From the NCBI GenBank assembly GCA_031423875.1, contig JANPGI010000105.1, forward strand, positions 1 to 51,727: a DNA stretch of 51,727 nucleotides. Direction: 5' to 3'. Origin of the DNA: Verrucomicrobiota bacterium. GTDB lineage: Bacteria; Verrucomicrobiota; Verrucomicrobiia; Limisphaerales; JADLHS01. A program made the translations under genes and the position numbers. This document shows, piece by piece, positions 22,580 to 43,791 of the stretch. Positions within the stretch are counted from its first letter, which is position 1, and every line of letters begins with the position of its first letter. The notes beneath the pieces were generated by a model. It saw nothing but the letters and a program-made list of their open reading frames with translations. It did not search any database and was not told the origin of the DNA.

Positions 22580-23209
22580 ATGAAAAACAGACTTTTGATT
22601 CTCCCGATCGCAGCCGGTCTTCTGGCACTTGCCAGCGGATGCAAGACGTGTTGCACCGACGCACCCAAACAGGCGACTGCTGGCGCGACGCCGACTGTGA
22701 CTGTGGCAAAACCCGCCGCGCCAAAACCTCAATTGCCGACCCTACGGATCAAGGCCGGGGCTGGCACGGTCAAGGATTCCTCCGGCTTGGAGTGGCTCGC
22801 AGAGTGTGGTTTCACCGGCGGCGACATCGTCGAACGACCTGACCTACCAATCACCAACACCAAGCAACCTGAAATCTACCGCTCTGAACATTACGCAATG
22901 GAGTCATTCACCCAGAAACTTCCCAACGGAAAGTATCAGGTGAAACTTCACTTCTGCGAAACTTTTGAAGGCATCAGCGGACCGGGCGAACGCGTGTTCT
23001 CCTTCGACGTTGAGGGCAAGACTTTCAAGGATTTCGACGTTTGGGCGAAATCAGGCGGTGCGGCCCGCGCCTACGTAGAGACCGTCGCAGTGGACATCAC
23101 GGACGGACAACTCGACATCAAGTTCACCTCTCAAGTGGAGAATCCCCAGATCAATGGCATCGAGATTCTTCCCCACGAAGCAACCACCGCGTCGAACCAG
23201 TATCGTTGA
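22580..23209 (+). CDS. Malectin-domain (carbohydrate-binding) lipoprotein
   Basis: Lipobox LALASGC. Malectin-like core: LRIKAGAG...EIYRSEHY...YQVKLHFCETF...GERVFSFDVEG...DFDVWAKSGG...NPQINGIEIL. Confidence 0.75.
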   Translation: MKNRLLILPIAAGLLALASGCKTCCTDAPKQATAGATPTVTVAKPAAPKPQLPTLRIKAGAGTVKDSSGLEWLAECGFTGGDIVERPDLPITNTKQPEIYRSEHYAMESFTQKLPNGKYQVKLHFCETFEGISGPGERVFSFDVEGKTFKDFDVWAKSGGAARAYVETVAVDITDGQLDIKFTSQVENPQINGIEILPHEATTASNQYR

Positions 23210-23219: not shown

Positions 23220-25937
23220 CTATTTCGCTGACATCACAACGGCCTTGACTGTTGCCGAGCCTGCAACCAGCCCATCAGATTCCGCGATGACTTTGATCGC
23301 TCCCGATTGATTTGGTAGCCCCGCCACAATGACCAGACAATGCCCGCCGAACGCCTTGCGCTCGTGCGATGCGAATGGTTCAAAACTCGTCGCATCTCCG
23401 TTGTCAGTGGCGATGATCTTACCCGCGCCCTCAACTTTGAACCGGATGCGATTTGTCGCACGAGGCGCTTCAATGCCTTCGCTGTCCGTCACAGTCACAG
23501 TCACAAAACACAGATCCTTTCCGTCAGCGGAAATCTCTTTGCGGTCAGCATCCGCTTTTAATCTGGAAGGTTCACCTGCTGTCCTCACTTCGTCCGTGGC
23601 CCACTTCTTTCCGCTCTTGTAGGCGACGACTTTGAGTTTGCCCGGTTGGTAGGTCACATCATCCCAACGGAGACGATATTCATTCGCGCCTTTTTTCTTT
23701 CGCCCGAGAGATTGATCGTTGAGAAATAATTCCGCTTCATCGCCGGAAGTGAAGACATGGACGGGCGTAATTTGGTTCGTGCGTTCCGGCCATGTCCAGT
23801 GTGGGAGAAGGTGCGCCATGGGCAGCTCCGGCCGCCAGCGGGATTGATAGAGGAAGAACCTGTCCTTCTTGAACCCAGCCAGATCAATGATCCCGAAGTA
23901 GGAACTGCGCGCGGCATAATACGGCGTTGGCTCGCCCAGATAATCGAACCCGCTCCAGACAAATTCGCCTGCCACAAACGGATATTGGTCTTGCGCGGCG
24001 AACACTTTGTCCGCCGACGATCCAAAGTCCGCCGTGTGCAGCTCGTAACTGCTGACCTGGCGGATTTTGGAATCGCCGCCATTGCCATCACGCGTTGGAT
24101 TGCTAACTCCACTGGCCACCGGAAAAAGATAAACCCCTCGGCTGCTCAAAGCCGCTGCGCTTTCGCTGCTGACAATCATCCTGTCGGGGAACTTCTCGTG
24201 AAATGCGCCGTACAGCGGCGGCGTCTTGATGCCGTTGAAGCTCGCGAACTCAGGCGTGTTGCGGATGCCTTCTCCCTGATAGTTCAAACTGATCACATCC
24301 ACCGCCGCAGCGAACGCCGAGTCCGGTTTGGCAAAATTCATCGAAGCGGTCGCGCGACGCGTCGGGTCTTCGTCGTGTGCCAATGCGATGAGTTGCTGAG
24401 CCACTTTCGCGCCTTCTTCACCGGTGTATTGTTCGCCGACTTCATTGCCCACGCTCCACATGATCACCGAAGGATGATTGCGGTCGCGGCGAATCCAGGC
24501 GCGCAAATCCTGTTCGTGCCAGTCGGCGAAGATCAGGTGAAAATCAAACGGCGTCTTGCGACGCACCCACGAATCAAACAATTCGTCCACTACCAGAAAG
24601 CCCATGCGGTCGGTCAACTCCAGCAGCTCTGTCGCGGGCGGATTGTGAGCCATGCGGATCGCGTTGCAGCCCATCTCGCGCAGGATTTCAAGCTGCCGCT
24701 CGGCGGCGCGCACATTGAACGCCGCGCCCAGAGCCCCAAGGTCGTGATGTTGATTCACACCCTGCAACCGGACGCGCTCACCATTGAGATAAAATCCATC
24801 CGGTTTGCATTCGACGGAGCGGATACCAAAGCGCGTCTCGTAACGATCCACAACTTTGCCATCCTGCGAAAGAGTGGTGACTGCGACGTAGCGATTCGGC
24901 TGCTGCGTGGGCGGCGCACCCCATAGACGAGGATTCGTGATGCTGACAGAGCTTTCCGTCATCGCAATTTCCCCGGCGATGATTTGCAACTCTTGCGGTT
25001 CAAATCTCGCAACGGCTGAACCTATCGCCGCGCCGTTCACGTCCGCGAGGAACAATTCGCTCGCAACACGAACCTTCGCCGATTGCTTGGAATCGTTATC
25101 CACCGTCACCCGCAAATTCACCTTGGCGCGTTCTCGCGAAACTTCCGGGGTGGTGACAAACGTCCCCCACTGACCGACGTGAGTCGGGGCGGTTTTCGTG
25201 AGCCAGACGTTGCGATAAATTCCCGCGCCCGGATACCAGCGCGAAAAGTCCGACGGATTATCGAGCCGGATCGCGATCTGGTTTTCACCGCCCAGAACGA
25301 CGTAAGGTGTGATGTCGAGTCGCCACGAGTTGTAACCAAACGGCCAACCGCCCGCGAGTTTGCCGTTCACCCAAACTGCGGCATACGACATCGCGCCGTC
25401 CACATCGAGAAAGATGGATTTGCCCGCATCGCTCGCGGGAATCTCGATCAGCTTCCGATACCAAGCGATGCCAGGACTCGGCAACCGCCCCATCGAGCCG
25501 CCCACGCCACCGGAGTTGAACGGCCCTTCGATGGCCCAATCATGCGGCAGATTTATTTTGCGCCAACTACTGTCATCAAAACTGTTTTGCACATACGCAA
25601 CGTCCCCGCCGGGATTTCCTTCAGGACGAACGAACCACTTGGCCGGGTCTTTGATGAACTGGTTGCCCGAAGGTAGAATCCACGGCTTGAGTACGCGATT
25701 GGTTGCCGTCGCCACTTTCTCAGCATCAGCGGTGGCTTCAGCCAGACGTTCTTTCTGATCCTCGCCGCGCGCGGTAGGGCGGATATCGTAAAGCAGGTCG
25801 CGCGAGTTGACATTCGTCGGATCGCCCTTGGTGAAACGCCACCCGTCATTGATGGAGATGCGCTCGCGGGTCGCGGGTTGTGCGGTAGCAATTCCTGTCA
25901 ACAGCACGGCCAAAGCGAATGTAAAAATGGCTCTCAT
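23220..25937 (-). CDS. Glycoside hydrolase family 2 (beta-galactosidase/beta-glucuronidase-type)
   Basis: Signal peptide. INDGWRF, WRKINLPHDWAIEGPF, NAIRMAHNPPATELLELTDRMGFLVVDE, NHPSVIMWSVGNE. The ATG overlaps the upstream CE15 stop (ATGA at 25934..25937). Confidence 0.88.
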   Translation of the reverse strand: MRAIFTFALAVLLTGIATAQPATRERISINDGWRFTKGDPTNVNSRDLLYDIRPTARGEDQKERLAEATADAEKVATATNRVLKPWILPSGNQFIKDPAKWFVRPEGNPGGDVAYVQNSFDDSSWRKINLPHDWAIEGPFNSGGVGGSMGRLPSPGIAWYRKLIEIPASDAGKSIFLDVDGAMSYAAVWVNGKLAGGWPFGYNSWRLDITPYVVLGGENQIAIRLDNPSDFSRWYPGAGIYRNVWLTKTAPTHVGQWGTFVTTPEVSRERAKVNLRVTVDNDSKQSAKVRVASELFLADVNGAAIGSAVARFEPQELQIIAGEIAMTESSVSITNPRLWGAPPTQQPNRYVAVTTLSQDGKVVDRYETRFGIRSVECKPDGFYLNGERVRLQGVNQHHDLGALGAAFNVRAAERQLEILREMGCNAIRMAHNPPATELLELTDRMGFLVVDELFDSWVRRKTPFDFHLIFADWHEQDLRAWIRRDRNHPSVIMWSVGNEVGEQYTGEEGAKVAQQLIALAHDEDPTRRATASMNFAKPDSAFAAAVDVISLNYQGEGIRNTPEFASFNGIKTPPLYGAFHEKFPDRMIVSSESAAALSSRGVYLFPVASGVSNPTRDGNGGDSKIRQVSSYELHTADFGSSADKVFAAQDQYPFVAGEFVWSGFDYLGEPTPYYAARSSYFGIIDLAGFKKDRFFLYQSRWRPELPMAHLLPHWTWPERTNQITPVHVFTSGDEAELFLNDQSLGRKKKGANEYRLRWDDVTYQPGKLKVVAYKSGKKWATDEVRTAGEPSRLKADADRKEISADGKDLCFVTVTVTDSEGIEAPRATNRIRFKVEGAGKIIATDNGDATSFEPFASHERKAFGGHCLVIVAGLPNQSGAIKVIAESDGLVAGSATVKAVVMSAK

Positions 25938-27304: not shown

Positions 27305-27350
27305 AAATTTGATAGGGTCGGGATGATCTCGGAACAGTTGATCAAAATCG

Positions 27351-28655
27351 TCATGGCACGAACAGATTCAAATCAATCGAGTCCGCCATGGCTTTGTAAC
27401 CAAGCACGTTCAAATGCAACCAGTCGTTGGCATTCACGCCCGGGAAATACTCCGCCTTGAACTTCGTCGTATCCGCTGGATCGCGCACCGCCGCGTCGAA
27501 ATCGATCACGCCGTCGAACACCGTGTTCGTGCGGAACCATGCGTTGACGAACTGACGTTCCTCTTCATGAAGCGTGCTGTAATAGCCGTTGCCACCGAAC
27601 GGCGTGATCGTTGCGCCATAACATCGAATCCCCCGCGCCTTGGCCTTGGTGGCGATCTGGGCGTAAGCGTTCACGAGATTCGTCGCAGTGGTCATGCTGC
27701 TGGCGCCGCTGCCGATGTCGTTCACGCCTTCAAAACAGACGAAGTAGCGCACGCCATTCTGCCCCAGCACGTCCCGGTCAAATCGGTTCACCGCCGCGAC
27801 GCCAAGCCCGCCGAAAATGCCGTTACCGCCAACGCCCATGTTGGCCACCCCGACGCCCGCTGTCGGCGCGTTAGTGATCAGACGTTCGGCGAGAACATCC
27901 GTCCAACGATTGTTTAAGTCGTCGGTCGAACCCCGACCATCGGTGAGAGAATCACCCAGCACTGCAATGGTTCTGCCGAAGCTGTTGGCCAACACCTCTA
28001 AGCCGGTGATGATATACCAATGCTTGGTCTTGCTAGCGCTCGGCATGCTCGCAGCGGAAAGCACATTACTGGACTGGATGAACGACGTAGTGCGCGAGCC
28101 GGGATGTCCGTTGATAGTCGTGGCGGAGATGTCGCCGAAATAGATGCTGATGGCGACGTTGGTCAACGCTGGTAAGTCTAATGTGATCGGATCGGAGAAC
28201 ACCGCTTCGCCGCGCGGAATGACGACGCCGGGAGCGCCGCGAAAAGTGACGTTCTTTTCCGTGGCGGAGATGATGTCGCCATTGCCGATGCTGGCGGAGC
28301 TGGGAGCTAGCGCGACGCGGGCGGCATTGATGTTCACGGCGTTGGTGCCGTAATTGTTGGAGAAACGCACCCGCACCTGTTTTCCGCCAATGCTCACACG
28401 GATAAACTGGCGCAGCGTGCTGTGAGCCAGCGGCGCAGGCGGCAGGTTTCCAGGTTCGGTCAGTTGTGGTGCGGTGCCCCAAGTTGTCACCCAATGGCCG
28501 TCTGCGGCGCGGAGTTCGGACGGCAAACAGACAAGCGCGCCGAGCAACACCATAAACATGAACGCCGAGTTCGATTTCCGAATTCTCACCAGGGCAGTCA
28601 GTGCGCAGCGAGAGAAGGCACGCGCGTTAGTGATGGGATGATTGTCAGTTTGCAT
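27351..28655 (-). CDS. SGNH/GDSL-family hydrolase (probable acetyl esterase) with an N-terminal beta-sandwich domain
   Basis: Block I IAVLGDSLTDG, block III GVNDIG, C-terminal DWLHLN (DxxH). Alternative starts at 28559 and 28553 (MFMVLLGALVCL signal). Confidence 0.8.
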   Translation of the reverse strand: MQTDNHPITNARAFSRCALTALVRIRKSNSAFMFMVLLGALVCLPSELRAADGHWVTTWGTAPQLTEPGNLPPAPLAHSTLRQFIRVSIGGKQVRVRFSNNYGTNAVNINAARVALAPSSASIGNGDIISATEKNVTFRGAPGVVIPRGEAVFSDPITLDLPALTNVAISIYFGDISATTINGHPGSRTTSFIQSSNVLSAASMPSASKTKHWYIITGLEVLANSFGRTIAVLGDSLTDGRGSTDDLNNRWTDVLAERLITNAPTAGVGVANMGVGGNGIFGGLGVAAVNRFDRDVLGQNGVRYFVCFEGVNDIGSGASSMTTATNLVNAYAQIATKAKARGIRCYGATITPFGGNGYYSTLHEEERQFVNAWFRTNTVFDGVIDFDAAVRDPADTTKFKAEYFPGVNANDWLHLNVLGYKAMADSIDLNLFVP

Positions 28656-30699
28656 AGGAACGATAGTAGCGGGTTGAGGTGTTGTTGACGTCTGTGAATT
28701 GCCACGCGCCGTTCACGTCGGCGATGTTGGTGGACACGTTTTGCCAGATGACAGGCGGTGCAAGATTCGCCGTCGCCTGAACGACATTCGTCGAGTTGGG
28801 CGCGCCAAGGAAATGAAGCGTCACCGTGTCATTCATGTTGCGAACAATGTTGGTGATCCACGCTGGTGGCAACGGCAACGGAATACTGAACACAGTTCCA
28901 GCCGCACCCGGCCCACCGCTGAACGTCGTGCCGATCAAGGAATCTCCCACGCGCGACACCGGCGCGACGGGATAAGCACCGTACGCGTTCGTGCCGTTGC
29001 TCGCGAGCGCGCTGAAGTTGTGCACCAGCGTGAACTGAGAACTGCTTAGGTTATACGAAAACACTGCTCCCGCCGCGCCAGTCCCACCGGCGGATGCCGT
29101 GCCATAGAGAACATTGCTCGACAGAATCAAACCGGCGGCGGGAGATGCGCCACTGGTATTGGTACGCGTGACAGGATCAATCGCACCGAAGTGATGTAGC
29201 ACAGAAAAGCCGCTGCCGTTGGTAGAGAGCGAAAAGATTGTGCCGCGTCCGCCGCTGCCACCCGCGAAAGTTGTTCCGTACAGCCAGCCATTCGAGAAGA
29301 CCAGTCCACCGTAAGGAATCGCGCCGTCGGCGTTCGTGCCGGTCAGAGGATCGAGCGGCGCGAAGCTGCGAAGCGTGGTAAAACCGGCACCGTTCGTCCC
29401 GATGGAAAACACCACGCCGCTGCCCCCGGTTCCACCGGCAGAGGCAGTGCCGTAAAGCCTACTGCCCGAAATAATCAAACCTCCCGACGGAACTGCGCCG
29501 TCAACATTTGTACCCGTCTGTGAGTGCAGGATATTAAAATTATACATTACCGAGAAAGTCACGCCGTTGGTCGTGAGTGAGTAGATTGTGCCGTTTGCGC
29601 CCGCACCGCCCGCTGTGGTTGTTCCGTAAAGCGTGCCGCCAGCCAATGCAAGCAATGCCGTCGGACTCGCGCCGCCAGAGTTAGTAGCAGTGTCTGCGTG
29701 AACGGCGGAAAAATGACGCAGCACCGAAATGCTGCCGTTGGTTTGAACCGAGAAGACTGTTCCCACGCCGTTGTTGCCACCGGCGAAACTGGTGCCAAAG
29801 AATCCGTTTCCAGAAGCGGTTAAATCTCCATCCGAATTGTTCGCATCAGGCGCAACGGCGAAGGTGCGGAACGTGACAAAGTTCGAACCATTCGCGCTGA
29901 GATAGAAAGCCGTGCCTGCACCATTGGCGCCGCCGTTGAAAGTCGTGCCGCACAGGACGCCATTCAACAAAGCCACGCCCGCCGCCGGATTCGCGCCATC
30001 AGAGTTGAGACCGTTGCTCAACGGACTGAAGCGATGCAGCGCGATTCCGTCGGGGCCGTTGAATGTGTTCGTGCTAGGGCTAGGAGGCGGTGTTCCACCC
30101 GTGCCGTTGTCGAGATCAGTCACCGTGAAAGTGTTGCTGCTGACACCGAACACAAACTTGTCCAAGTCCAGCCCGTTTTCCCGCGCCCCGATCTGAACCG
30201 TCTGCGTTAGGTTTCCGGCAGTGACATTGAACCCGGACTGACTTGTGAACTGCGAGAGGTTGATCCATTTCCACATCCCGCTCCCGAGTGTTCCGCCGCC
30301 CGTCACCACGTCCACGCTATTGCTGAACCCGACGCTGCCGAGGCCGTTGGCCAATACCCAATCCGAGTTGAGCGTGGGTGATTTGCTGCCAAAGCTGGCT
30401 GCGTAAAACATGCTGTCGTCGTTGAACGTATCAGGGCCGACGCGCAGTCGGGCATAAAGTTGATAGAGTCCGGCAGCGGGAAAATTGACCGTGTAAGTCG
30501 CGACGCGCGTGGAGTTGCTGGGATTAGATCCTCCACCGATCGAAGTGATGGTGATAAACGCCGGACTGCTGCTGTTACTCACCGCCCAATCAGATCCAAG
30601 CGCACCGGACTCGGCTTGCATCGTCACTGAATTGGCCTGAGCGAGTCCTGGCACGATCACGATCAACGCAATCAGTAACCATTCTGTAAGAAATTTCAT
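28645..30699 (-). CDS. Secreted protein: N-terminal CBM-like domain + seven Gloeo_Verruco (GloVer) repeats + C-terminal YYR module
   Basis: Signal peptide. MQAESGALGSDWAV...YQLYARLRVG...LDLDKFVFG (CBM6/35-like logic). Repeats of the type DGA.P.GGL....G.LYGTT..GG..G.GT[IV]FS...NG..F..L..F. Confidence 0.8.
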   Translation of the reverse strand: MKFLTEWLLIALIVIVPGLAQANSVTMQAESGALGSDWAVSNSSSPAFITITSIGGGSNPSNSTRVATYTVNFPAAGLYQLYARLRVGPDTFNDDSMFYAASFGSKSPTLNSDWVLANGLGSVGFSNSVDVVTGGGTLGSGMWKWINLSQFTSQSGFNVTAGNLTQTVQIGARENGLDLDKFVFGVSSNTFTVTDLDNGTGGTPPPSPSTNTFNGPDGIALHRFSPLSNGLNSDGANPAAGVALLNGVLCGTTFNGGANGAGTAFYLSANGSNFVTFRTFAVAPDANNSDGDLTASGNGFFGTSFAGGNNGVGTVFSVQTNGSISVLRHFSAVHADTATNSGGASPTALLALAGGTLYGTTTAGGAGANGTIYSLTTNGVTFSVMYNFNILHSQTGTNVDGAVPSGGLIISGSRLYGTASAGGTGGSGVVFSIGTNGAGFTTLRSFAPLDPLTGTNADGAIPYGGLVFSNGWLYGTTFAGGSGGRGTIFSLSTNGSGFSVLHHFGAIDPVTRTNTSGASPAAGLILSSNVLYGTASAGGTGAAGAVFSYNLSSSQFTLVHNFSALASNGTNAYGAYPVAPVSRVGDSLIGTTFSGGPGAAGTVFSIPLPLPPAWITNIVRNMNDTVTLHFLGAPNSTNVVQATANLAPPVIWQNVSTNIADVNGAWQFTDVNNTSTRYYRSYAN
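28882..30048 (-). repeat. Array of about seven ~48-aa Gloeo_Verruco-type repeats (coding)
   Basis: LCGTTFNGGANGAGTAFYL / FFGTSFAGGNNGVGTVFSV / LYGTTTAGGAGANGTIYSL / LYGTASAGGTGGSGVVFSI / LYGTTFAGGSGGRGTIFSL / LYGTASAGGTGAAGAVFSY / LIGTTFSGGPGAAGTVFSI. Confidence 0.8.
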
Positions 30700-30739
30700 G
30701 CGAATAAAACGGTTGTTAAGTTCATCATCATTTTCCCGG

Positions 30740-33700
30740 CTACAACTGCGCGGGGGTCACGGCGCGGTAAAATCGCCGAGCGGCGCCTTGCGGGTTGTCC
30801 AAGACCACCGCCGCATGATTCGACGGTTGCGCGGGCACATCTTTCAATCGCAGCCAGGCTGTGTCACCCAGAGACGACTTGTATTGCACGGTGAACGAAT
30901 GGTTCGAGATCGCGTTAAAACTCAGCGAGACGATACCGGCATTCGCGCTGATGCTTTCCATGCGAAGGCTACCGCTAAAATTGTTCGTCTGCATCGGCGT
31001 GACCAACCGGTAGAAACGCTGCGCATCGCCGGCCACGGTATTGGTCAGGTTGACGACGCGATTCGTCGGATGCGCGGGGACGTTGCTCAACATTGACCAC
31101 TGTGCCGCGTCCAGTGACGATTTGAAAAGCAGACTGTAAGTGCGATTGGAACTGGCGAAAAATTGCAGGACGACATTGCCATTCTGCGCAGCGATCTGCG
31201 AGAACCTCAAGGCGCTCGCCGCGAATTGCGGATGCGTGCCCGCCAAATATTCCTCCCAGTTCGTCAGCCCATCAAGGTCTGGATCGTCGTTCGCGTCCGC
31301 GATGAAAACGAACGTGCCGAACTCCTGCTCCCACGCATCCGGCAGACCGTCGTTATCCGAATCACTTGTGCCGACGGCTTGCCCGGGCGTTGGCGCAGCG
31401 GCAATCCAGTGGGTCGGTTCGTTCCCGTAACTGGAAGCGGGCACGCGTTGCAACGACATGCCGCTGCCGTCAGCGGCTGGCGGCCAAGGAGTTTTATCAT
31501 TGTAACGCACCGCATCCATCGCCACGTACGGCACGCCATTGGTGTTGGGATTATCGGGCGCTTGCAACTCCACGTTCTCTCCGCCGTCCTGTAACTGTCC
31601 GGCAAACGGGCCAAAGATTTGGATGTTCGTCGGCACATTGTATTGGGAGCGGAACGCCGTCGGGTTGGTCGCCACGACGAGCAAAGTGCCGTTAGCGCCA
31701 ATCGTCACATTCGTCGGAAACGTGAAGTCCACGCCGCTGAGTTTCCAGGTATTCGTTGGGAAGGTGGCGTGCGCCAACGCCACCGGACTGGCGGTGAGGT
31801 TGAGCAACTCGACAAATTCCACGCCGTTGGTTTCCGGGTTGTAATGGATTTCGCTGATGACCACCGGGCCGATGACTGGAGTTCCATTCGCCACACCAAG
31901 TGTCAACGTCGCCTGCTGTGGATACGATTCCTCACCGGCACTATTCACATAGCGTCCAAAACTCACGCCATTGAATGACGCACCGAACTCCGCGCTGTGG
32001 CTGTAGCCGGTCAATGTACCATCGAGCGCGGCAGAAAAGAGATGCACGTCGTCGCCGGTGGAACTCAGCAGGAAACTATTCGTCGCGCCGGGCGTGGCGT
32101 TGAAATCGTCTTCATCGAAATAAATCCGCGCACCCGCGTTGATGACGGTGTTGTTCGGGATGCGGAACTTCTTCGGCGTGTCCGGAGCGTCTGTCAAATA
32201 CCAACCGCCGATGTTCACGTTCGTGCCAGTGGGATTGTAAAGTTCGACGGCGTCCTTTTGCGGCGGATCGGTGTGGGCAAGCACTTCGTTGATGACGATG
32301 GGCGCAATCGTCTGCACAGGATCATCCGCGCCCGGCGAGCCGCCGGGATTCGTGCTGGCACGCCAGCGATTGCCTTTGTCCGGCGCTTGCGACACACCGG
32401 GAGCGACCTGCACGAGCGAGAAATCCGCCACATCCGGCCCGACCGGCCAGTCGGGGCGATCATCATACGTGACAGAGAAGATCGGCGTGCCGAGCGCGTG
32501 TGAAAGCGTTAGCTGTTCGCCGCTGTTATCGAGTTGCCCGGTGTATGTGCCGCCGATGGTCACGCCCGGATACTTGCTAGTGAACGCCGCCGCGTTGCGC
32601 GCGAGCACGAAGAATTGTCCCGGCGCGAGAGTCGTTCCGTTTGTGAAGGTGAACGTCAGTCCGCTCGTGAACGTCAATCCGGAAAGATTCAGCGTATTCG
32701 TACCGGTATTTTTGAGTTCGAGGAATTCCAGATTGTTACCGGTCGTCGCGCCGATGGTGGGTGGATTGTACATGATCTCCGTGAGGGCCAGCTTGCTCAG
32801 GTCTTGCGGCGGAAAAAACACCGCTTCCGTCAGCGCGCTCCAATTGCCTGCATCGAACACACGCGCGCGCACCACCGTCGGCGCGTTGATCGGGATGGAG
32901 GCCGCGTAAGCCTGCGCGCTGGCCGCGATTGCGCCCGTCCCGTATTGGCGGGGGTCACTGCCGTCTGTGGTGAAATAGATCAACCCGGCTAAATTTGTGT
33001 GCGAAATGGTGAGCGCAAATCCGTTGCTCACCGCGCCGCCAAACTGGCTGAACTCCGGCGCGCTGGTGCTGGGAAAAAGAAGCGCCGCTTGCAAGCGCGC
33101 GATGGTGCGTTGGTGCATCACGTTGGGAAACCAGTTCGTGTACAGCTTATGCAACTCCGCCACCCACCACTCGTCGCGCGTCAAGGTCTGACCAGTGCCG
33201 CCATTGCCTCCGATCGCGAACTCGCGGGCGTCGCCCCAGCGCGCCGATTCGCCGACGATGGCGCGGTCAATTTCCGCAGCGAGCAATTGCAACCGGGCAA
33301 CGTTGTTCGACGGCGAAAGGGCGCCGCCGTTGAACATCTGCTTCTGCACGCGGTCGCCATACAGGCGGCGGAACTCGGGCCAGTTGCGCAATTGATTATA
33401 GAGGCGCGACGGCAATGATCCGTCACTCAGGCCGTTCACCCGATCATCGTTTCGCAGCCGGTTGAAGGCGATTTCCTGATCCCAGGGCAGGAAGATCCAT
33501 TTCGTGGTCGGCAAGCCATTGGTGGCATTGGCCCGACGGTGCGCCCAATAAGAGTTGTGCGGGTTGCTGATTTGCAGCCAGTCGTTGGCCTCCACCAAGG
33601 CGTGCAGCAGGAAGTAATCAATCAGGTTGTCCAAATCCACCTGATCTGCCACGGCCTGAAAAGCGGACTCGCTGTTGATGCCAAGATTGACCAGGGCGAT

Positions 33701-36445: not shown

Positions 36446-36463
36446 CGACGACGGGTTGGAATT

Positions 36464-37825
36464 CTATTCAAACTTCCAGTGATCCAGATTCAGCAAGGGT
36501 TTCTCGCCTCCCGTGAATTTCACATACAGGTCCTGCACGCCGCTCGCGGCTTCAACTGCGCATGAAATTTCTTTCCATTGCTGCCAACCGCCGGTGTTTT
36601 CTACTTTGCATTTGCCAATCACCTTGCCGTCCAAAGCGCCGAGCCGGAGTTCGATGTTGCCGCCCTGTTCCGCGCTGGCGACGCGGGCGCTAAATTTCTT
36701 CGCACCCTTCGCACCGAAATCAACTCCAGCAACTTTCACCCAATCGCCATTGTGGAGTTCAGACAGGTTCAAGCCTCCGTCGCTGCACGGCTCTGTCTCG
36801 ACGCCGCTTTGCGCGCAGAAGGTTTCTCCCTCTACCCGTACATAGGGATTGAGATGGCCAAGTTGGCCGACACCATTCGTCGTATAGGTGACTTTCTTGA
36901 TCGAGCCGTCATCGTTGAAACTGAATTCCTCGATGCCGAGGTTGCGGCGGAAGCCTGTCGGGATACCCGCCTGTTTCGCGACGATACGGTTGTGATAGAT
37001 GTGATACCAGCGGCCTTTGAACTCGAACTGCGCGGAATGGTTGTTGTCGTTGAAGTTGAGCGGTGGTTGATCCGCCACGATGCCGCGATAGGTAAAACCG
37101 TTCGTTGGATTATCGCTTGTCTGATAATCAATCCGCATCTTTGCATTCGGCGTTGTAGAATAGGAAAAGTAGTAAGTCCCGTTGCGCTTGAAAACCCATG
37201 CTGCCTCAAAAAAGTTTGTCGCGTTCATCTTGATGACTTCGCCATTGATGCTGGTCATGTCGCGATTGAGCCGGGCGCAGCGAACATTGTCGTCGCCGTT
37301 GCCGCCCATGTAGAGGTACGCCTGTCCATCGTCGTCAATGAAAGCACCGGGATCAAAGAGCCACATGTTCTTCGCGGGCTGGATGCCGGGAGTTCCGTGA
37401 GTGACGAGCGCTTTGCCGAGAGGTTCGGTGAACGGCCCGACCGGAGTGGGCGCGACGGCGACGCCGATGTCCGCACCGCCGTTGCCGAAATAGAGGAAGA
37501 ATTTTCCGTCTCGCTCAATCGCCGCTGGTGCCCAAGTTTTCTTTGCCCACTTGGTGCTGTCACTCGCGCGGAACAGAGAGCCGTGATCCGTCCAGTTCTT
37601 CATGTCGCTGCTCGATATGCAGATGACGTTGGGAATGTTGTAGCTGCCACCCACGGGACTTTCATCGTCGTTGGAGCAATAGACATAGACGCGATCCTTG
37701 GTGACGAGTGTGGATGGATCGGCCAGATAACGATGTGAGGCGATGGGGTAATCAGCCAGCAGTGCAGGCGCAGAGGCGACAAGGGCGATACAGGAGACAA
37801 AGAGCAAGAACCGTGATTGTTTCAT
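36464..37825 (-). CDS. GH43 glycoside hydrolase with C-terminal CBM6 (arabinoxylan arabinofuranohydrolase/xylosidase-type)
   Basis: Signal peptide. YLADPSTLVTKDRVYVYCSNDDE, WAPAAIERDGKFFLYF, five-bladed-propeller GH43 pattern. CBM6: VEGETFCAQSGVETE...GDWVKVAGVDFG...NIELRLG...TGGWQQWKE. Confidence 0.88.
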   Translation of the reverse strand: MKQSRFLLFVSCIALVASAPALLADYPIASHRYLADPSTLVTKDRVYVYCSNDDESPVGGSYNIPNVICISSSDMKNWTDHGSLFRASDSTKWAKKTWAPAAIERDGKFFLYFGNGGADIGVAVAPTPVGPFTEPLGKALVTHGTPGIQPAKNMWLFDPGAFIDDDGQAYLYMGGNGDDNVRCARLNRDMTSINGEVIKMNATNFFEAAWVFKRNGTYYFSYSTTPNAKMRIDYQTSDNPTNGFTYRGIVADQPPLNFNDNNHSAQFEFKGRWYHIYHNRIVAKQAGIPTGFRRNLGIEEFSFNDDGSIKKVTYTTNGVGQLGHLNPYVRVEGETFCAQSGVETEPCSDGGLNLSELHNGDWVKVAGVDFGAKGAKKFSARVASAEQGGNIELRLGALDGKVIGKCKVENTGGWQQWKEISCAVEAASGVQDLYVKFTGGEKPLLNLDHWKFE

Positions 37826-37961
37826 ACTAGATTTTGAAAGGATGAGTCACCAACGAAAGCGGGCGGCGATCCTCGGATATAATGTTTTGAGTGATTGAAC
37901 GTCGAACAGATCACGCGCCCACAACCGATAAGTCGGTGGACAGGACAACCAATACGCCCTG

Positions 37962-38735
37962 TCACTTTAACGTCGGCAGTCGTATAACCAACGGTTGCTC
38001 AAAGTCCTGAGTCTCCTGTGACCAGTAGGTGTCGGTAACGCCAAACGCTCCATTTCGAGTTGCAAAGCGATACCACGAATCAATTTTTCGCCACGCGGCA
38101 GAACCGTCGGCAAAGACTTCATTGCCACCATTCGGGTTGTTGCCCTTCTTGTGTGGCGGAGAGTTTGCATAGATGTAGTAGCGGGTCGAGGCTCTCGCGC
38201 CAGGATCGTTTTCTGACCAATTGACACCAATTTTTATCAAGGCATCAGCTGCCAACACCCAATGCGGCTTTGAGGTGGATAACTTGACCGGGCTGTAAGA
38301 CTTAAAGGCACCACCCGGCGTTACCCAATTGGTCAAACCACCCATATAATTGTACCCGATCACCCATTGAGGAACGCCGGCTTCAAAATCCGGCAAGCCT
38401 GGGGCAAGCTTTCCCCGATTCGGGCAACACCAAATCGAACTCGCCTTCGAATCTACATTCAACCCTACGTTTTTTGCTCCCGAGGCTCCTGGGTCTGTAA
38501 GCGTATTAAGAACATCCAGCCGGACAGGAAGAACCAGGTCGTTGTTGTCCACAGAATAAACCGTCATGCCGATGCCGATTTGTTTAAGGTTGTTCAAGCA
38601 TTGGATTATTTTCGCCTTCTCTTTGGCCTTAGCCAACGCCGGGAGTAGCATCGCCGCTAAGATGGCGATGATGGCGATGACCACGAGTAATTCGATTAGT
38701 GTGAAACCGGCTGTGCTGGATGATTTTGTTTTCAT
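37962..38735 (-). CDS. Prepilin-type N-terminal cleavage/methylation domain protein (DUF1559-like pseudopilin paralogue)
   Basis: MKTKSSSTA|[57 protein letters not shown]; C-terminal VFADGSAAW. Confidence 0.85.
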
Positions 38736-38796
38736 TAAAAACTTCGACTAGGGGCTAAGTTTGATTTAATTCGATGACATTTTGAGAAGTGTTGGC

Positions 38797-39630
38797 TTAA
38801 TAAAACCAGCCGGACGTGGCACTTTTCCAAACGCACACAATTTTTTGCCTGTTGTGTGATTCCACATGGCCATCCGCATACGCCACGTTGACAGAATTCA
38901 ATTGCCTGTTCGAGACGTGACCGGAATATTTTTTAGCGATCTTCAGATTGGCCGTGTTGTCCGCGCCAGTGATGTTGATGTCATTCACATTGGCTCCGAT
39001 CGTTGAACCGTAGCCCGAAAAGCATGTGTCACTGATGAACGGAACATATTGGCTGGCTTTATCAGTCGCCTTCTTTGGGAAGCCGTAAGTTTTGAGATCG
39101 GTACCGGGCACGATATTCTGGGGATCGGGAGACTCGATGACAGAGATGCCGACCGTGGTGGATCCCCGCGAGACCCATAAATTGTGATTCATGACGTATA
39201 ACCCGGCCGCACCTACCAGTTTGTACATGTAGTTGGTCACATCCGTTAATGTGGAGATCGGCAGGCCACCATTGATGGTGACTGCTGCATTGGCTTCTTC
39301 AGGCCGGGCCGGACAGAACCACATTCCAGCCGTCAATCCGTATGTCCCCATGACCGGCACAAATTCCGGGCCGATGTCCCACGGATTGCCCTCACCAATC
39401 GTCGCCATCATGCCCATTCCGGGCAACGCATCCTTTGAATCATTGGCATACATGTTCGCCATCACTCCCCACTGTTTGTAATTGGAAGTGCAGTTGATGA
39501 CCTTGGCTTTGAACTTCGCCTTGGCCAAGGCGGGTAACAACATGGCGGCCAAGATCGCGATGATGGCGATGACCACGAGCAGTTCGATCAAGGTAAAACC
39601 GGACGACTTTTGTTTTTTATAGTTCATCAT
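38797..39630 (-). CDS. Prepilin-type N-terminal cleavage/methylation domain protein (DUF1559-like pseudopilin paralogue)
   Basis: [10 protein letters not shown]|[57 protein letters not shown]; C-terminal [11 protein letters not shown]. Confidence 0.85.
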
Positions 39631-39656
39631 TTTCGGCTGTTATTTTTCGGCACACA

Positions 39657-39700
39657 GAAAAAATGCGAGGGGCTACCCAACCCAAGGCACGCCCCTCGCA
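39657..39700 (-). terminator. Rho-independent terminator downstream of the PATR giant
   Basis: 10-bp stem (39664..39673 pairs with 39691..39700, tgcgaggggc/gcccctcgca), 17-nt loop and a run of six T on the minus strand (39658..39663). It starts 21 nt after the TAA at 39721. Confidence 0.7.
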
Positions 39701-39720
39701 CTCAACCAGTCAACCAACCC

Positions 39721-42700
39721 TTAAGGCGTAGAAATAAGACGGAAGAAGACCGATCCGTTTGCCGGGTTAATCGTCACGTTGACCGGGCTGCTGCCACCGC
39801 CGGGATAATCACCCCAGTTGCTGTTGATACCCACGCTGACGCTGTTCGTCTGCGCTTGCAGCTTGTAACCACTGCCGGGCCAGGTGAATTGCAGGTTGTT
39901 GCCCGTCTGTGTGAAGCCCAATGACGGTGGAGCCAACACTGTGGCGACTGTGATACTGCCGTCCACGGCGAGGGCGTTGGTCCAAGTCGCACCACCGCCG
40001 GTGACGGTCAGTGCCGCACCGCCGGTGACCGGCTGGCTGAACAGGGTGAACTTAGTGCCCACGGTAAGAACCGGGCCGAGGTTCGCCACAGTGAGAGTTC
40101 CAGAACCAGTCTTGGACAATACTCCAGTCACAGCAGCTACGTCATTGGACTGCGCGAGGGATGTGTTCACCTGCACAGAAACATTGCCGCCGATGGTCAG
40201 GTCGCTAACAGCCGTGAGTGTGCCGATCGCACTGGCTGACGCACCGGGCGAGAACGTGGTGCCCGCCTCCAAGGTGATTGGGCCGTAGAACGCGCCCGTG
40301 CCACCCAGTGTGCCGCCATAGACGGCGGTTGAGCTGGCAAAGTTCTCATTGTTCATGAACAACGCGCCGTTGCTGACGGTGAGGGATCCCGTGATGTTAT
40401 TCGTGCCGGTGAGCGTCAGGGTGCCAGCGGCCAGTTTCACAATTGAACCCGCTCCGCTGATGGCGCCGCCGAAGGTCAAGTCGTTCGCGCGATTAAACAC
40501 AAGCACGCCGTTGTCAGTCACAGGGCCGGTGCCGATGTCACCAGTGGTGCCGCCGTCACCGACTTGGATCGTGCCAGCGGTGATGACTGTGCCGCCCGGA
40601 TAATCATTGTTAGCCGTGAGCGTCAGAACACCAAGACCACGTTGCTCTACGATGCCGCGGTTACCGAACGGCAGGGTCGGCGCGAAGGTGATGAGGCCCG
40701 GGAACGTAAAGTCTTCCGGATGGTTGAAGGCAACTCTCCGTGGATTTTCGTTCGGAGTGAGGCTGTTGGTGAAGAGGATGCCACCAACAATCGAGCCAGC
40801 ACCGGGAGTGCCGCCATCGCCGAGAACAAGTGTGTTGTTGGCGATGATCGTGCCGCCTGTGTAAGTATTCGTGCCGGTCAAGGTCACGTCGCCCACGTTG
40901 ACATTGTTGGCATCTACCAATATGCGACCCGTTCCGACAACAGGACCAGCGTAAATGAAGACTGCGTTGTCTTGGCGGACAAGTTTCAGGGTGCCATTAT
41001 TGGTCACCATCGAACTGGACAGTGACCCTTGATTGCCTTGTGCAGGCTGGAACGTGGCGCCGGGTTCGATGAGTGTCCAACCGGTATAGGTGTTCGCGCC
41101 GAGCGCTTGAAACAGGTTGCCCGCACCTCGAACAATCACATTGCCCGTACCGCTAATGCCGCCGCCGCCAGACATGGTGAACGATCCAGTGCTGTCAAAG
41201 ATGAAGGTGCCGTCGTTGACCACGGGAGCGGTGGAGTTCAATTTACCCGTCGCCCCGCCGTTGCCCACCTGCAAGGTGCCTGCAATGATAGTGGTCTGGC
41301 CTGCATAGCTGTTGTCACCGGGCAAAACGACCTTGCCCGTGCCATCTTTGGTAACGGTTCCGGTACCGCTCACAGTGCCATTGGTAAGAGTGCTGGAAGT
41401 GTTGAAGACGAGGCTGCCGTTGTTTAGGATGTTCCCGCTGCCCAGCGAGCCGCTGGCCCCGCCCACGCCAACTTGCAACGTTCCGGCAGCGATCGTGGTC
41501 GCGCCGGAATACGTATTGTTCCCGGTCAAAACCCACTTGCCCGCGCCGCTCTTCGTCAGCGCAGTCGCGCCACCATTGTCACCGAGCGAGGCTGCGAGAG
41601 TATTATCGTTCATGTCTGCGCCCGACAAGGTGAGCGTACGTGCGCCGGTGCCGCTCAAGGCGACTGAACCAGCGTTGCCCAGAGCCAACGCGCCAGAGCC
41701 TGAAGAGTTAATCGCACCGTTCCCAGTACCGAGCGTGAACAGACGATCACTGGTCGCCCCGCTGCCGGTGTATTGTAGTGTGCCGCCATTGAGCACCAAA
41801 CTTCCTGCGGTGTTGTTCGCAGCACCGATGTCGCTCGCAGCTCCACCGTTGGCCAACGCACCGACGCTCACCGTGCCGCCGCTGATAGTGGTGGCACCAC
41901 TGTAAGTATTGACGCCGCCTGCCAGCGTAAGAGTGGTGCTGCCACTCTTGGCCAAACCGCCGCTACCACCGATGAGGTTGGCGCCGCTTGATGTGATGCT
42001 GTAAATCTTGGCACTGCTGCTCACCGCAACGCCCGTAGGCGAAACCGGGGAATTGAGGACCACATTGGTCTCTCCCGTAGCGGTGTCGTCAAACAATGCG
42101 GTGTTGCCGTTGACAAAAACTGCCGAAATGCCGCCAGCCTTCCAGTTGTTCGCCGTGGCGGTGTCCCAGTTGCCGTTGCCCAAGCCAGTCCAGACAAACG
42201 CCAGTGAGGTGATGTTCAGTTTGATCGTATTGCCGTTGGTGGTGAGATTGCCACCGGCACCGGTCAACGTTCCGAGAGTGACCGCCGGGGCCGAGCCGCT
42301 GCTCCAAGAGAACAACGGGTAGCTTTGACCAATGGCGAACGTGCCGCTGTTGACATTGACGGTGATCGTGCCGCCAGCCGAAACTGAACCTGCCGCGATC
42401 AACGCGGTTGATGTGCTGGTGACGTTGTTGAATTCTAAGGTGGAACTGGTTCCCACAGTCAGCGTGGTCGGCGCGATCGGCGTGCCGGTGGCTTTGACAC
42501 CGAGTGCCGCGCTGTTGGCAATCGTGATGTCCCCTGCGCCTGCTGAACCTTCAATCACCAGCTTACCAGCGCTGACCGTGGTCAATCCGCTGTAAGTGTT
42601 CGCACCGGAAATTGTCAGCGTGCCCGATCCGATTTTGGTGAACGTACCGCCACTGCTGGTCAGAGCGTTTGTGAGGGTCACACTCTGTCCACCCGTATCA

Positions 42701-43791
42701 ATTCGATACGACTGGGAGGCTGCAGTGCTGAAGCGCGGGGAATAATCGAAGGTGTTGTTGACGCTGTATTGCAGCGTGCCACCAGTGAATGAAACCGTGC
42801 CGCCGACTCCAAGCGGTCCAAAAATGCCAGCGCTTTCCGCCCCGTTGACGACCAAAGCACCGCCACTGAGAATGGTATTGCCCGTATAGGTGCTCGCGCC
42901 GGAGACGGTGAGCGTGCCGTTGGCTACCTCCAGATTGCCGGAGCCAGAAATGACCCCGGTAAGAGTCTGCGCCTTGGAAGGAGCATCATATTTGAAAAGC
43001 GTTCCATTGTTGACGATGCCTTGGGAGCCTAAGGTACCCACCCCAGCCGGGCTAAGCACCGTATTATGCATCAGAACCACAGTGCCACCAACGATGGTGA
43101 TGGGACTGTTAATGGCGCCGTTACCCACCGCCCCCGAAAGCGAAGGACCACCCCAATACAATGTGCCGGAACCGGTTTTCTGAATCAGAGTTCCCGGACC
43201 GTTGGCAACAATAAGGTTGTTGGTGACCCACCAATCTCCCGTTCCAGCAAACAACAAAACATGCACAGCGCCGCCGCCTGATTGTACCCGCACGTTGGGA
43301 TAGATGATGCTCGGGGCCGTTGAATTATTGATGAATTGATGGAGCTGGTTGGCATTACCCGGTCGCCAAATGAGATTCAGTATGTTCGCGGAAGTATTTC
43401 CTAAACTGAACTGTGCGCTGGCCGTGTCATTAGAGATCGAAAGAATGGCAAGGTTGACAGAAGCCCCGACCGGAGAATAGATGTTCACGTTGCCGGTTTG
43501 GGGAGGGATCATGGAGAAACTCACCCCTGAGTTCCCGAAGCCGCTGGCCAGACCACCATTATAGTCCAAGGTGAGATTGCCGGGCACGATACCGCTCCAC
43601 TGACCGATGTCACCCCCACCGGTACCGGTGATGACTGGCAAGGTGCCGCTCCAGTTGCTGGCAGCACCGACGTATGTTCCAGTACCATTTCCGCCGTTCC
43701 AAGGGCGTATCGTCTGGCCGAAGGCAGCCGTCGTAGCGAAGGCGCAGCACAGGAGGATTAATACTTTAATATCTTTGAGTCTTGTTTTCAT
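39721..43791 (-). CDS. 1356-aa secreted PATR (autotransporter-associated beta-strand repeat) protein without a beta-barrel translocator; C-terminal FFR module
   Basis: Start at MKTRLKDIKVLILLCCAFATTAAFGQ (cat 43789..43791); the ORF extends to 44019. More than 15 PATR units (GANTYSGLTTVSAGKLVI, NNTYSGATTIAAGTLQVG, DNSYAGQTTIIAGTLQVGNGGATG, TNTYTGGTIIANNTLVLGDGGTPG, NNDYPGGTVITAGTIQVGDGGTTG...). Confidence 0.88.
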   Translation of the reverse strand: MKTRLKDIKVLILLCCAFATTAAFGQTIRPWNGGNGTGTYVGAASNWSGTLPVITGTGGGDIGQWSGIVPGNLTLDYNGGLASGFGNSGVSFSMIPPQTGNVNIYSPVGASVNLAILSISNDTASAQFSLGNTSANILNLIWRPGNANQLHQFINNSTAPSIIYPNVRVQSGGGAVHVLLFAGTGDWWVTNNLIVANGPGTLIQKTGSGTLYWGGPSLSGAVGNGAINSPITIVGGTVVLMHNTVLSPAGVGTLGSQGIVNNGTLFKYDAPSKAQTLTGVISGSGNLEVANGTLTVSGASTYTGNTILSGGALVVNGAESAGIFGPLGVGGTVSFTGGTLQYSVNNTFDYSPRFSTAASQSYRIDTGGQSVTLTNALTSSGGTFTKIGSGTLTISGANTYSGLTTVSAGKLVIEGSAGAGDITIANSAALGVKATGTPIAPTTLTVGTSSTLEFNNVTSTSTALIAAGSVSAGGTITVNVNSGTFAIGQSYPLFSWSSGSAPAVTLGTLTGAGGNLTTNGNTIKLNITSLAFVWTGLGNGNWDTATANNWKAGGISAVFVNGNTALFDDTATGETNVVLNSPVSPTGVAVSSSAKIYSITSSGANLIGGSGGLAKSGSTTLTLAGGVNTYSGATTISGGTVSVGALANGGAASDIGAANNTAGSLVLNGGTLQYTGSGATSDRLFTLGTGNGAINSSGSGALALGNAGSVALSGTGARTLTLSGADMNDNTLAASLGDNGGATALTKSGAGKWVLTGNNTYSGATTIAAGTLQVGVGGASGSLGSGNILNNGSLVFNTSSTLTNGTVSGTGTVTKDGTGKVVLPGDNSYAGQTTIIAGTLQVGNGGATGKLNSTAPVVNDGTFIFDSTGSFTMSGGGGISGTGNVIVRGAGNLFQALGANTYTGWTLIEPGATFQPAQGNQGSLSSSMVTNNGTLKLVRQDNAVFIYAGPVVGTGRILVDANNVNVGDVTLTGTNTYTGGTIIANNTLVLGDGGTPGAGSIVGGILFTNSLTPNENPRRVAFNHPEDFTFPGLITFAPTLPFGNRGIVEQRGLGVLTLTANNDYPGGTVITAGTIQVGDGGTTGDIGTGPVTDNGVLVFNRANDLTFGGAISGAGSIVKLAAGTLTLTGTNNITGSLTVSNGALFMNNENFASSTAVYGGTLGGTGAFYGPITLEAGTTFSPGASASAIGTLTAVSDLTIGGNVSVQVNTSLAQSNDVAAVTGVLSKTGSGTLTVANLGPVLTVGTKFTLFSQPVTGGAALTVTGGGATWTNALAVDGSITVATVLAPPSLGFTQTGNNLQFTWPGSGYKLQAQTNSVSVGINSNWGDYPGGGSSPVNVTINPANGSVFFRLISTP

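Follow-up and report, generated by a model that had tools for sequence, protein, structure and literature searches.

Among the major degraders of polysaccharides from plants and algae are Verrucomicrobiota and their relatives, which do without SusC/D, the machinery behind glycan capture in Bacteroidota, and how they bind, process and import the polymers is still a question. This question is raised in a concrete form by contig JANPGI010000105.1 of a soil-type Verrucomicrobiota bacterium (assembly GCA_031423875.1). The contig, analysed over its whole length of 51,727 nucleotides (nt) and below called the window, contains a minus-strand gene block (23220-43791) where xylan-degrading enzymes are encoded together with two pilin-like proteins and three large non-enzymatic secreted proteins, one with PATR repeats, one with CotH and lamin-tail domains (LTD) and one with GloVer repeats. 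Do the latter participate in the utilisation of xylan, or are they chance neighbours of the enzymes? The observations as a whole are best explained if the block forms the central part of a regulon for glucuronoarabinoxylan utilisation in a bacterium from the class Verrucomicrobiia, and this is probably the case. Comparison of related loci shows that the non-enzymatic genes, with a partial exception for the CotH/LTD giant, are conserved parts of a type of xylan utilisation locus. The PATR, pilin-like and GloVer proteins are very likely genuine parts of xylan handling in this SusC/D-less group.

Gene content and conservation of the block

The open reading frame (ORF) map and scans against Pfam and NCBIfam give nine consecutive minus-strand genes in the block. 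An earlier note on this DNA, made from the sequence alone, spoke of ten genes, although its own list had nine; the domains, gaps and overlaps it described were found in place. In the order of transcription, the block is headed by the PATR giant (39721-43791, 1356 amino acids, aa). Its start is the ATG at 43791, followed by a Sec signal peptide, seven or eight PATR repeats and a C-terminal Ig-like module ending in FFRLISTP. The next two genes encode pilin-like protein A (38797-39630, 277 aa), with an N_methyl domain, the prepilin N-terminus G|FTLIELLVV, a large head and a weak H-X9-DG-like C-terminus, and pilin-like protein B (37962-38735, 257 aa), with an N_methyl domain, a prepilin N-terminus and a sub-threshold match to the start of DUF1559. 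They are followed by a GH43 enzyme of the arabinofuranosidase type with a carbohydrate-binding module (CBM) of family CBM6 (36464-37825, 453 aa), and by a giant protein with a CotH, four LTD, CHB_HEX_C and Fn3_assoc domains and two tandem C-terminal Ig-like modules (30740-36445, 1901 aa). The GloVer protein (28645-30699, 684 aa) has a signal peptide, a predicted N-terminal beta-sandwich, seven GloVer repeats and a C-terminal Ig-like module. The last three genes encode an SGNH/GDSL esterase (27351-28655, 434 aa), a glucuronoyl esterase of family CE15 (GCE_fung; 25934-27304, 456 aa) and a GH2 enzyme (23220-25937, 905 aa), assigned by NCBIfam to GalB-type beta-galactosidases with 1469 bits against a cut-off of 900. 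The intergenic spacings in the same order are 90, 61, 136, 18, 40, -11, 46 and -4 nt, where the last value is an ATGA overlap of CE15 and GH2 seen directly in the sequence. The non-enzymatic proteins account for 4475 of 6723 encoded residues (66.6%), which is the two thirds given in the earlier note.

Related loci were collected using three genes of the block, GH43-CBM6, GloVer and pilin B. An exact-sequence look-up of the GH43-CBM6 protein gave no match, and a metagenome scan with it produced 48 related loci; tblastn, phmmer and Pfam were used to compare these with every protein of the window. Six orthologues of pilin B were picked for look-ups of their neighbourhoods irrespective of carbohydrate-active enzymes (CAZymes). 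The closest labelled relatives are metagenome-assembled genomes of Verrucomicrobiia and Limisphaerales. The loci have a common backbone with identities of 47-84%: the PATR giant, one to three pilin-like genes, variable large genes, GloVer, SGNH, in some cases CE15, and GH2. The same backbone is present in more than 12 related genomes. The synteny check that the earlier note had set came out in favour of the PATR, pilin-like and GloVer genes, whose order and orientation alongside xylan CAZymes are preserved in many related loci; the result for the CotH/LTD giant, a facultative insert, was mixed.

The full backbone of PATR, pilin A, pilin B, GloVer, SGNH, CE15 and GH2 is present in locus L058 at 62-76% identity. 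Full-length PATR orthologues (47-84%) lead the block in L007, L038, L052 and L054-L060, and PATR is followed by a pilin-like gene in 10 of the 11 PATR-bearing loci (for instance, in L038). In L052, L058 and L059 the place of pilin A is taken by its orthologues (68-79% identity). Five of the six pilin B look-ups have the PATR giant directly upstream and xylan enzymes within 10 kb. In the nearest GH43-CBM6 relatives (L005, L004 and L044, 81-89% identity), as in the window, one or two genes of the pilin-like kind lie immediately upstream. Among the four pilin-like proteins of the window, identity in the head domain is only 21-25%, whereas their positional counterparts in other loci are 56-94% identical. 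Thus the pilin-like genes are orthologues holding their place rather than arbitrary paralogues.

For GloVer, more than 120 clusters of full-length orthologues were found. The gene belongs to a xylan cluster in nine of nine loci examined, and look-ups of its context gave xylan clusters in all five cases. Four of these five have the order PATR, one to three pilin-like genes, a variable large gene, GloVer, further genes and a terminal GDSL/SGNH esterase, which is followed by GH2 in L053 and L054. The block of L061 begins at GloVer and ends with GH2 (the latter by Pfam only), and L060 has the same backbone with a GH43-CBM6::GloVer fusion. SGNH orthologues (69-78%) are situated downstream of GloVer or CotH in L006, L008, L038, L039, L052-L055 and L058. 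The CE15 orthologue of L058 (76%) is fused to a GDSL domain, and GH2 orthologues (66-74%) close the block in L008, L053, L054 and L058. The order is PATR, GH43-CBM6, CotH/LTD in L007, and GloVer, GH43-CBM6, other genes, SGNH, GH2 in L006 and L008. GH43-CBM6 itself is a variable insert in the backbone.

Several sister loci bear signs of turnover. An IS1595 transposase gene lies between GH10 and the operator/PATR region in L055 (3466-4422). The cluster of L057 ends with a 33-aa remnant of GH43-CBM6 after pilin B (10813-10911), and the PATR gene of L059 is broken into two ORFs (4839-9031). Enzyme domains are extensively shuffled among the loci, producing SASA-SGNH, CE15-GDSL and GH43-esterase fusions and an esterase-malectin(x3)-GH51 giant (examples are found at L039 15810-17858, L058 17788-19827, L052 13497-15905 and L042 15267-20393). 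Unlike this giant, malectin of the window is encoded by a separate small lipoprotein-like gene.

Candidate operator and transcript structure

Comparison of the intergenic regions of the window revealed the palindrome ATACGAC-N4-GTCGTAT, below called the operator (its sites are given without strand). The window contains seven matches with at most three mismatches against 1.34 expected, and none of 100 shuffled sequences reached seven. Six of the seven are situated in promoter regions. Site O1 (43949-43966, ATACGACGATTGTCGTAT) has no mismatches and lies 158-175 nt upstream of the PATR start codon. Site O2 (44018-44035, one mismatch) lies 42-59 nt upstream of the divergently transcribed gene of GH115 alpha-glucuronidase (44077-47025, plus strand). 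The latter probably starts at 44077 rather than at the listed 43939, since a start there (MTNPITRSDGLRSFTFAVLMLL...) gives a normal signal peptide and a length similar to that of the orthologues; the ORF as listed would span both sites. Two more sites (22445-22462 and 22508-22525) were found between the divergent genes encoding an MFS_2 sugar symporter (20878-22428, minus strand) and a malectin-domain lipoprotein-like protein (22580-23209, plus strand). Single sites were found upstream of GH10 (site 49342-49359; gene 48022-49251, minus strand) and between the plus-strand genes of a PA14-domain sensor histidine kinase (16847-20050) and a LuxR/NarL-type response regulator (20154-20855; site 20066-20083). 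The seventh, weak site (37968-37985, three mismatches), at the end of pilin B and upstream of GH43-CBM6, may be a chance match, about 1.3 being expected at this stringency.

The sister loci contain 18 sites with at most two mismatches (17 against approximately 1.2 expected, plus one in L061), and the operator is conserved in nine of these loci overall. It precedes PATR in L007, L054, L055, L056, L057 and L059; in L008 and L061, where the block opens with GloVer, it lies immediately upstream of this gene. The divergent GH115/PATR pair recurs in L056 and L059 with paired sites similar to O1 and O2 between the genes. The site between the kinase and regulator genes recurs in L008 and L039, and the sensor kinase also adjoins the cluster in L007 and L054. 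Other sites are situated upstream of GH10, GH43 and malectin-GH51 genes. In every locus, the stretch from PATR to the final gene of the block is free of operator sites, save the three-mismatch match of the window. As the operator is common to the accessory genes and to the xylanase and transporter promoters, it links the former to xylan use. The PATR, pilin-like and GloVer genes are very probably co-regulated with the xylan locus.

The motif, including its copy upstream of the response-regulator gene, can also be read as TACGACA-N2-TGTCGTA. Such 7-2-7 inverted heptamers fit regulators of the NarL/LuxR type. The adjacent LuxR-type response regulator is a candidate regulator of the whole regulon and probably binds the operator.

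The enzymes were described in the earlier note as a coherent set for glucuronoarabinoxylan, and this holds for the block (GH43-CBM6, CE15, SGNH, GH2) and extends to its flanks. The right flank contains, in addition to GH115 and GH10, a SASA esterase (47147-48025, minus strand) and GH67 (49410-51605, minus strand). Together with the MFS_2 symporter and the histidine kinase/LuxR pair these genes make up a CAZyme gene cluster. The N-terminus of GH67 is twin-arginine-like (MKLTRREFVVAGLTGAAGL), which suggests export to the periplasm by the twin-arginine translocation (Tat) system; the other enzymes have Sec-type signals. The absence of SusC/D was also borne out: Pfam scans of 27 window ORFs found no SusC, SusD or TonB-dependent-receptor domain, and membership in a SusCD-type polysaccharide utilisation locus (PUL) was rejected for this reason. 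The earlier comparison of the block with a PUL can be retained in part: the coherence of the CAZymes, the lack of SusC/D, the synteny and the shared operator speak for it, whereas CotH/LTD also occurs outside xylan loci. Further away, tRNA-Leu(CAA) (14091-14177, minus strand) overlaps the 5' end of a TPR-protein ORF (12695-14122), and the true start of this ORF must be further downstream.

A terminator had been placed after PATR by the earlier note. The corresponding element (39658-39703, minus strand), directly 3' of the PATR stop codon, is a GC-rich hairpin (39661-39703) followed by six T. Its folding energy is -36.9 kcal/mol (z = -6.4), and none of 200 shuffled sequences folds as well. Its loop of more than 8 nt was the reason why a simple terminator scan did not detect it. 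Strong GC-rich hairpins of differing sequence follow the PATR stop codon in seven of seven loci examined, at a distance of only 23-70 nt from the following start codon. The interval between the T-run and the start codon of pilin A in the window is about 25 nt, too short for a separate promoter downstream of the hairpin. Judging from this arrangement, the block is most likely read as one long transcript from a promoter upstream of PATR, and the hairpin probably attenuates the transcript or stabilises its upstream part. If so, the PATR mRNA would exceed the downstream message. On the other hand, the window hairpin has a canonical T-tract and thus could be a full terminator, making PATR monocistronic. 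The remaining genes could then depend on a promoter hidden within the 3'-terminal part of the PATR gene.

Pilin-like, GloVer and giant proteins

Both pilin-like proteins of the block have the prepilin motif G|F...E5 followed by a hydrophobic helix, as in type IV pilins and pseudopilins. They score 37.7 and 31.5 bits against N_methyl (cut-off 21.2), and TIGR02532 is above its cut-off. They cannot be assigned to GspG, as their TIGR01710 scores (36.6 and 28.1 bits) are far below the cut-off of 88.85, and the proteins have 257 and 277 aa compared to approximately 140 aa. The window contains no gsp genes. Pilins from PDB match pilin B over residues 11-68 only, and the model has a helix at 13-60. 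Pilin B is slightly below the cut-off for DUF1559 (PF07596, 21.7 bits against 23.3, N-terminal part only), as is pilin A for TIGR04294 (H-X9-DG, 16 bits against 19). The orthologues of pilin B have invariant H195 and D210-G211, but the spacing is 14 residues, not nine.

A second cassette of pilin-like genes and giants was observed at 1277-8625 on the minus strand, beside plus-strand 8626-11685; it is divergent from a Reg_prop/Y_Y_Y histidine kinase gene. It consists of a pilin-like gene with DUF1559 (7642-8625), genes of an 833-aa Ig protein (5087-7588) and a 1001-aa GH25/PATR/cadherin/Ig protein (2069-5074), and another pilin-like gene (1277-2032), all on the minus strand. The cassette has no ATACGAC-N4-GTCGTAT site and thus presumably belongs to a different regulon.

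The GloVer protein scores 209.1 bits against TIGR03803 (cut-off 44) with seven repeats, and so is a member of this family. The AlphaFold2 model (mean pLDDT 83.7) has a beta-sandwich at either end and recurring blades of beta-strands over the seven GloVer repeats in between. Foldseek hits with this model were dominated by the propeller and were generic beta-propellers, so the model agrees with the propeller suggested in the earlier note. The predicted N-terminal sandwich, below the N-module, occupies residues 22-205 (DNA 30085-30636, minus strand), and the C-terminal Ig-like module is encoded at 28648-28872 (minus strand). The N-module is fused to GH43-CBM6-Laminin_G giants in L038, L039 and L052, to a GH98-CBM giant in L053 and to a BNR_4 protein in L054, and in L060 (protein P0046) the entire GloVer protein is fused to GH43-CBM6. 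Since the partners are enzymes of xylan clusters, it can be argued that the module targets the same substrate. The predicted beta-sandwich and the fusions to GH43-CBM6, GH98 and BNR_4 suggest a CBM-like role. A relaxed Pfam scan of the N-module gave nothing at E<=10 except Golvesin_C (E=0.019), and PDB sequence searches with the GloVer protein and the N-module profile gave no match. A homologue search with the module alone retrieved mainly short fragments without useful domain architectures, and a literature search on GloVer (TIGR03803) repeats found no relevant paper.

The PATR protein is likely to form a beta-helix, as suggested by its repeat family. It matches the ShdA adhesin model partially (E = 1.3e-26), far under the model cut-off. 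The possibility that it is an autotransporter was considered and rejected, as it has only PATR repeats (TIGR02601/PF12951) and no beta-barrel translocator, and its C-terminus is a 70-aa Ig-like module. The CotH domain of the second giant (PF08757, residues 754-1074) qualifies for the CotH kinase family with 87.7 bits (cut-off 23.8). The sequence of this protein contains a PWDQE motif. PDB sequence searches with the PATR and CotH proteins (for the latter, the whole protein and the CotH domain) gave no match. Relaxed Pfam scans of region 165-560 of the CotH giant and of the N-terminal half of the SGNH esterase gave nothing significant. No window protein has a dockerin or cohesin hit, and so the block does not qualify as cellulosomal.

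The Ig-like module of approximately 70 aa, ending in [FY][FY]R, is found at the C-termini of the PATR, CotH (two copies) and GloVer proteins and of the proteins encoded at 2069-5074 and 5087-7588. All five of the large non-enzymatic proteins encoded in the window carry it, and none of the window CAZymes does; in the sister loci it also occurs in giant multi-domain CAZymes. It had no hit in the Pfam and NCBIfam scans run, including relaxed Pfam. A profile search retrieved at least 4909 cluster representatives, where the module is often in tandem and usually C-terminal, and up to 37 copies were counted in one protein of 7939 aa (P0248).

Possible roles and comparison with known systems

The following scheme could account for these data. 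The block would be transcribed from the operator-bearing PATR promoter upon binding of the adjacent response regulator, and the same operator would control GH115, MFS_2/malectin, the GH10 operon and the response-regulator gene. GH43-CBM6 and CotH/LTD would be cargo placed into the conserved backbone. The Sec-exported PATR, CotH/LTD and GloVer proteins would act beyond the cytoplasmic membrane, presumably at the cell surface, as non-catalytic proteins of xylan binding or display, and GloVer would target xylan via its CBM-like N-module. The pilin-like proteins would be cut by prepilin peptidase, and a machine of type II secretion or of type IV pili, with its genes elsewhere, would assemble them into a short fibre that exports or displays the large proteins. 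The small enzymes would debranch xylan, and the oligosaccharides would be imported by the MFS_2 symporter. A more doubtful extension of this scheme, offered as a tentative suggestion, is that the PATR, pilin-like and GloVer proteins together are a so far unrecognised extracellular apparatus of glycan capture and display, specific for the Planctomycetota-Verrucomicrobiota-Chlamydiota (PVC) group and driven by a pilus- or secretion-type machine.

Several facts weigh against the assignment of the block to xylan utilisation and against the roles proposed for its products. The sister loci were found by homology and are not phylogenetically independent samples. Three close xylan loci (L042, L010, L043) have no accessory genes or a lone pilin-like gene, and in one of the six look-ups the pilin B orthologue (P0167, 64%) lies among housekeeping genes. 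The CotH/LTD giant is present in the xylan loci of the window, L007 (67%) and L055 (73%). However, a scan of the genome collection found one true relative, and this closest orthologue (L001, 79%) stands alone among unrelated genes (molybdopterin oxidoreductase, PNKP (polynucleotide kinase-phosphatase) ligase, other oxidoreductase genes), with no operator; thus CotH/LTD is a facultative insert. L058 and L060 have no operator and carry an AraC-type gene directly upstream of PATR instead (4160-4651 and 1172-1669, respectively), which suggests replacement of the regulator. Neither an outer-membrane transporter nor type II secretion or type IV pilus assembly genes were found in the window. The N-module of GloVer has no match to a known CBM family, and the head of pilin B none to known pilin structures: a Foldseek search with the pilin B model gave no match better than E=1. 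The C-terminal Ig-like module was considered as a strict sorting signal, and this was rejected because of internal and tandem copies elsewhere. Capture, enzyme display, adhesion and secretion are alike compatible with the data, and for the pilin-like proteins secretion fits them equally well as capture.

The simplest alternative is that the pilin-like, PATR and GloVer genes, being hugely expanded in the phylum, merely happen to be near CAZymes. The 52-kb window encodes four pilin-like and two PATR proteins, 67 homologues of pseudopilins are known from a related Verrucomicrobium (PMC13274419), orthologues of CotH and pilin B do occur outside xylan loci (L001 and P0167), and several xylan loci lack the accessory genes. 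Nevertheless, hitch-hiking is very unlikely: specific orthologues keep their order and orientation across loci diverged to 47-84% identity, the operator of the xylanase and transporter promoters also precedes the accessory genes, and GloVer and its N-module are physically fused to xylan-cluster enzymes. A rather unlikely possibility for a single gene is that the CotH/LTD giant is an extracellular CotH-type kinase modifying proteins or the substrate, like cellulosomal CotH, and not a binder. The CotH domain well above its cut-off, the CotH-dockerin proteins of Clostridium thermocellum cellulosomes (PMC6083626) and the mention of possible structural or kinase roles in a review (PMC12484212) are in line with it. 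However, the PDB search provided no solved CotH structure to align the catalytic residues, the source of ATP outside the cell is a difficulty, and the gene is facultative in this type of locus.

Two other explanations concern the pilin-like proteins and giants. The former could be pseudopilins dedicated to particular cargo, working in a type II secretion system whose genes are elsewhere and driving the enzymes, together with the very large PATR, CotH and GloVer proteins, through the outer membrane; the giants themselves may be adhesins or spacers. The N-termini are canonical for prepilin peptidase, the best NCBIfam hits include GspG and GspH, though below threshold, and a pilin-like gene nearly always directly follows the gene of an exported protein of more than 1300 aa; the second cassette repeats the combination of pilin-like genes and giants. 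In Klebsiella, the pul genes share their regulation with pullulanase, a debranching enzyme. Type II export was also proposed for an alginate operon with a PulG-like pseudopilin (PMC13274419). On the other hand, the pilin-like proteins are about twice as large as GspG and score far under its cut-off, no pseudopilin was found to resemble the head of pilin B in structure, the neighbourhood has no other gsp genes, and the GloVer-headed loci L008 and L061, as well as L007, do without a local pilin-like gene. Dedicated secretion is therefore possible but not favoured. Slightly more doubtful is adhesion, with the pilin-like proteins forming a fibre similar to type IV pili and the PATR giant attaching the cell to plant particles, co-regulated with xylan capture and import but standing outside them. 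This is suggested by the pairing of PATR with pilin-like genes and by the PATR repeats, typical of passenger domains of adhesins, with the partial ShdA match. Pil-family proteins CbpC and GP25 of Ruminococcus albus bind cellulose. However, the PATR protein has an ordinary Sec signal peptide and neither a tip-adhesin signature nor a pilin-like N-terminus, and the hairpin after PATR points to unequal stoichiometry rather than assembly.

A regulon of glucuronoarabinoxylan utilisation with non-catalytic proteins in a fixed order would be of use beyond this genome. The locus type offers a set of candidates, namely the non-enzymatic genes of fixed order, the predicted operator with its candidate regulator, the CBM-like module and the pilin-like proteins, the last belonging to large paralogue families so far without an assigned role. 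It also connects pseudopilins of polysaccharide-induced operons with CotH/LTD proteins of cellulosomes. If the suggested apparatus is real, differing cargo (GH43-CBM6, GH98, CotH/LTD) plugs into a conserved backbone controlled by the operator. Among the papers searched, none was found to describe the PATR/pilin/GloVer backbone, nor the operator, the gene fusions or the common C-terminal module.

Parts of the system have counterparts elsewhere. The PATR giant shares PATR repeats with classical autotransporter adhesins, but differs from them by the absence of a barrel and by its Ig-like C-terminus. Pil-family proteins CbpC and GP25 of R. albus, implicated in the binding of plant cell-wall polysaccharides, are type IV pilin-like as well. 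They differ in phylum, head domain and substrate. In the Klebsiella pullulanase secreton, pseudopilin-type genes are likewise linked to and co-regulated with the gene of a polysaccharide-debranching enzyme. In contrast, the window has pilin-like subunits only, with no GspD, GspE, GspF or minor-pilin set, and these subunits are approximately twice as large as GspG, score below its cut-off and have a head without a matching fold.

The CotH/LTD giant is reminiscent of cellulosomal proteins of C. thermocellum, CseP (CotH-dockerin) and Cthe_0239 (LTD, LTD, Fn3, CotH-dockerin) (PMC6083626). In both cases CotH, lamin-tail and Fn3-type modules are attached to a system degrading plant cell walls. The role of cellulosomal CotH proteins is unexplained, as is that of the CotH dockerin proteins of anaerobic fungi, and may be structural or kinase (PMC12484212, PMC6083626). 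Unlike them, the giant of the window has no dockerin or cohesin, is much larger (1901 aa), ends in Ig-like modules and belongs to a Gram-negative host.

One described case comes from the same phylum. A PulG-like pseudopilin of Verruconatronum alginivorum, with 67 homologues in the genome, is encoded inside an alginate-induced operon (pgaptmp_000046-60), for which the authors proposed type II secretion (PMC13274419). As in the window, SusCD is absent and a pilin-type gene from a family of many paralogues is found in a polysaccharide operon. The substrate is alginate rather than xylan, and the PATR/GloVer backbone, operator and fusions are not described there, whereas the pilin-like genes of the window are positional orthologues kept with the PATR giant across many loci.

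CAZyme clusters without SusCD are a described state for Verrucomicrobiota (PMC11980603). Similarly to the PULs of Bacteroidota, the window has substrate-specific CAZymes co-located and apparently co-regulated with secreted non-catalytic proteins, a sensor and regulator and a sugar transporter, and the CBM-like module of GloVer resembles surface glycan-binding proteins. In contrast to these PULs, it has no SusC, SusD, TonB_dep_Rec or Plug domains, its accessory proteins are unrelated to SusD/E/F, and the hybrid two-component sensor is replaced by a PA14 kinase and a separate LuxR-type regulator. If the PATR, pilin-like and GloVer proteins do constitute an apparatus of capture and display, it would serve the SusC/D-less Verrucomicrobiota in the same way as SusC/D and surface glycan-binding proteins serve Bacteroidota.

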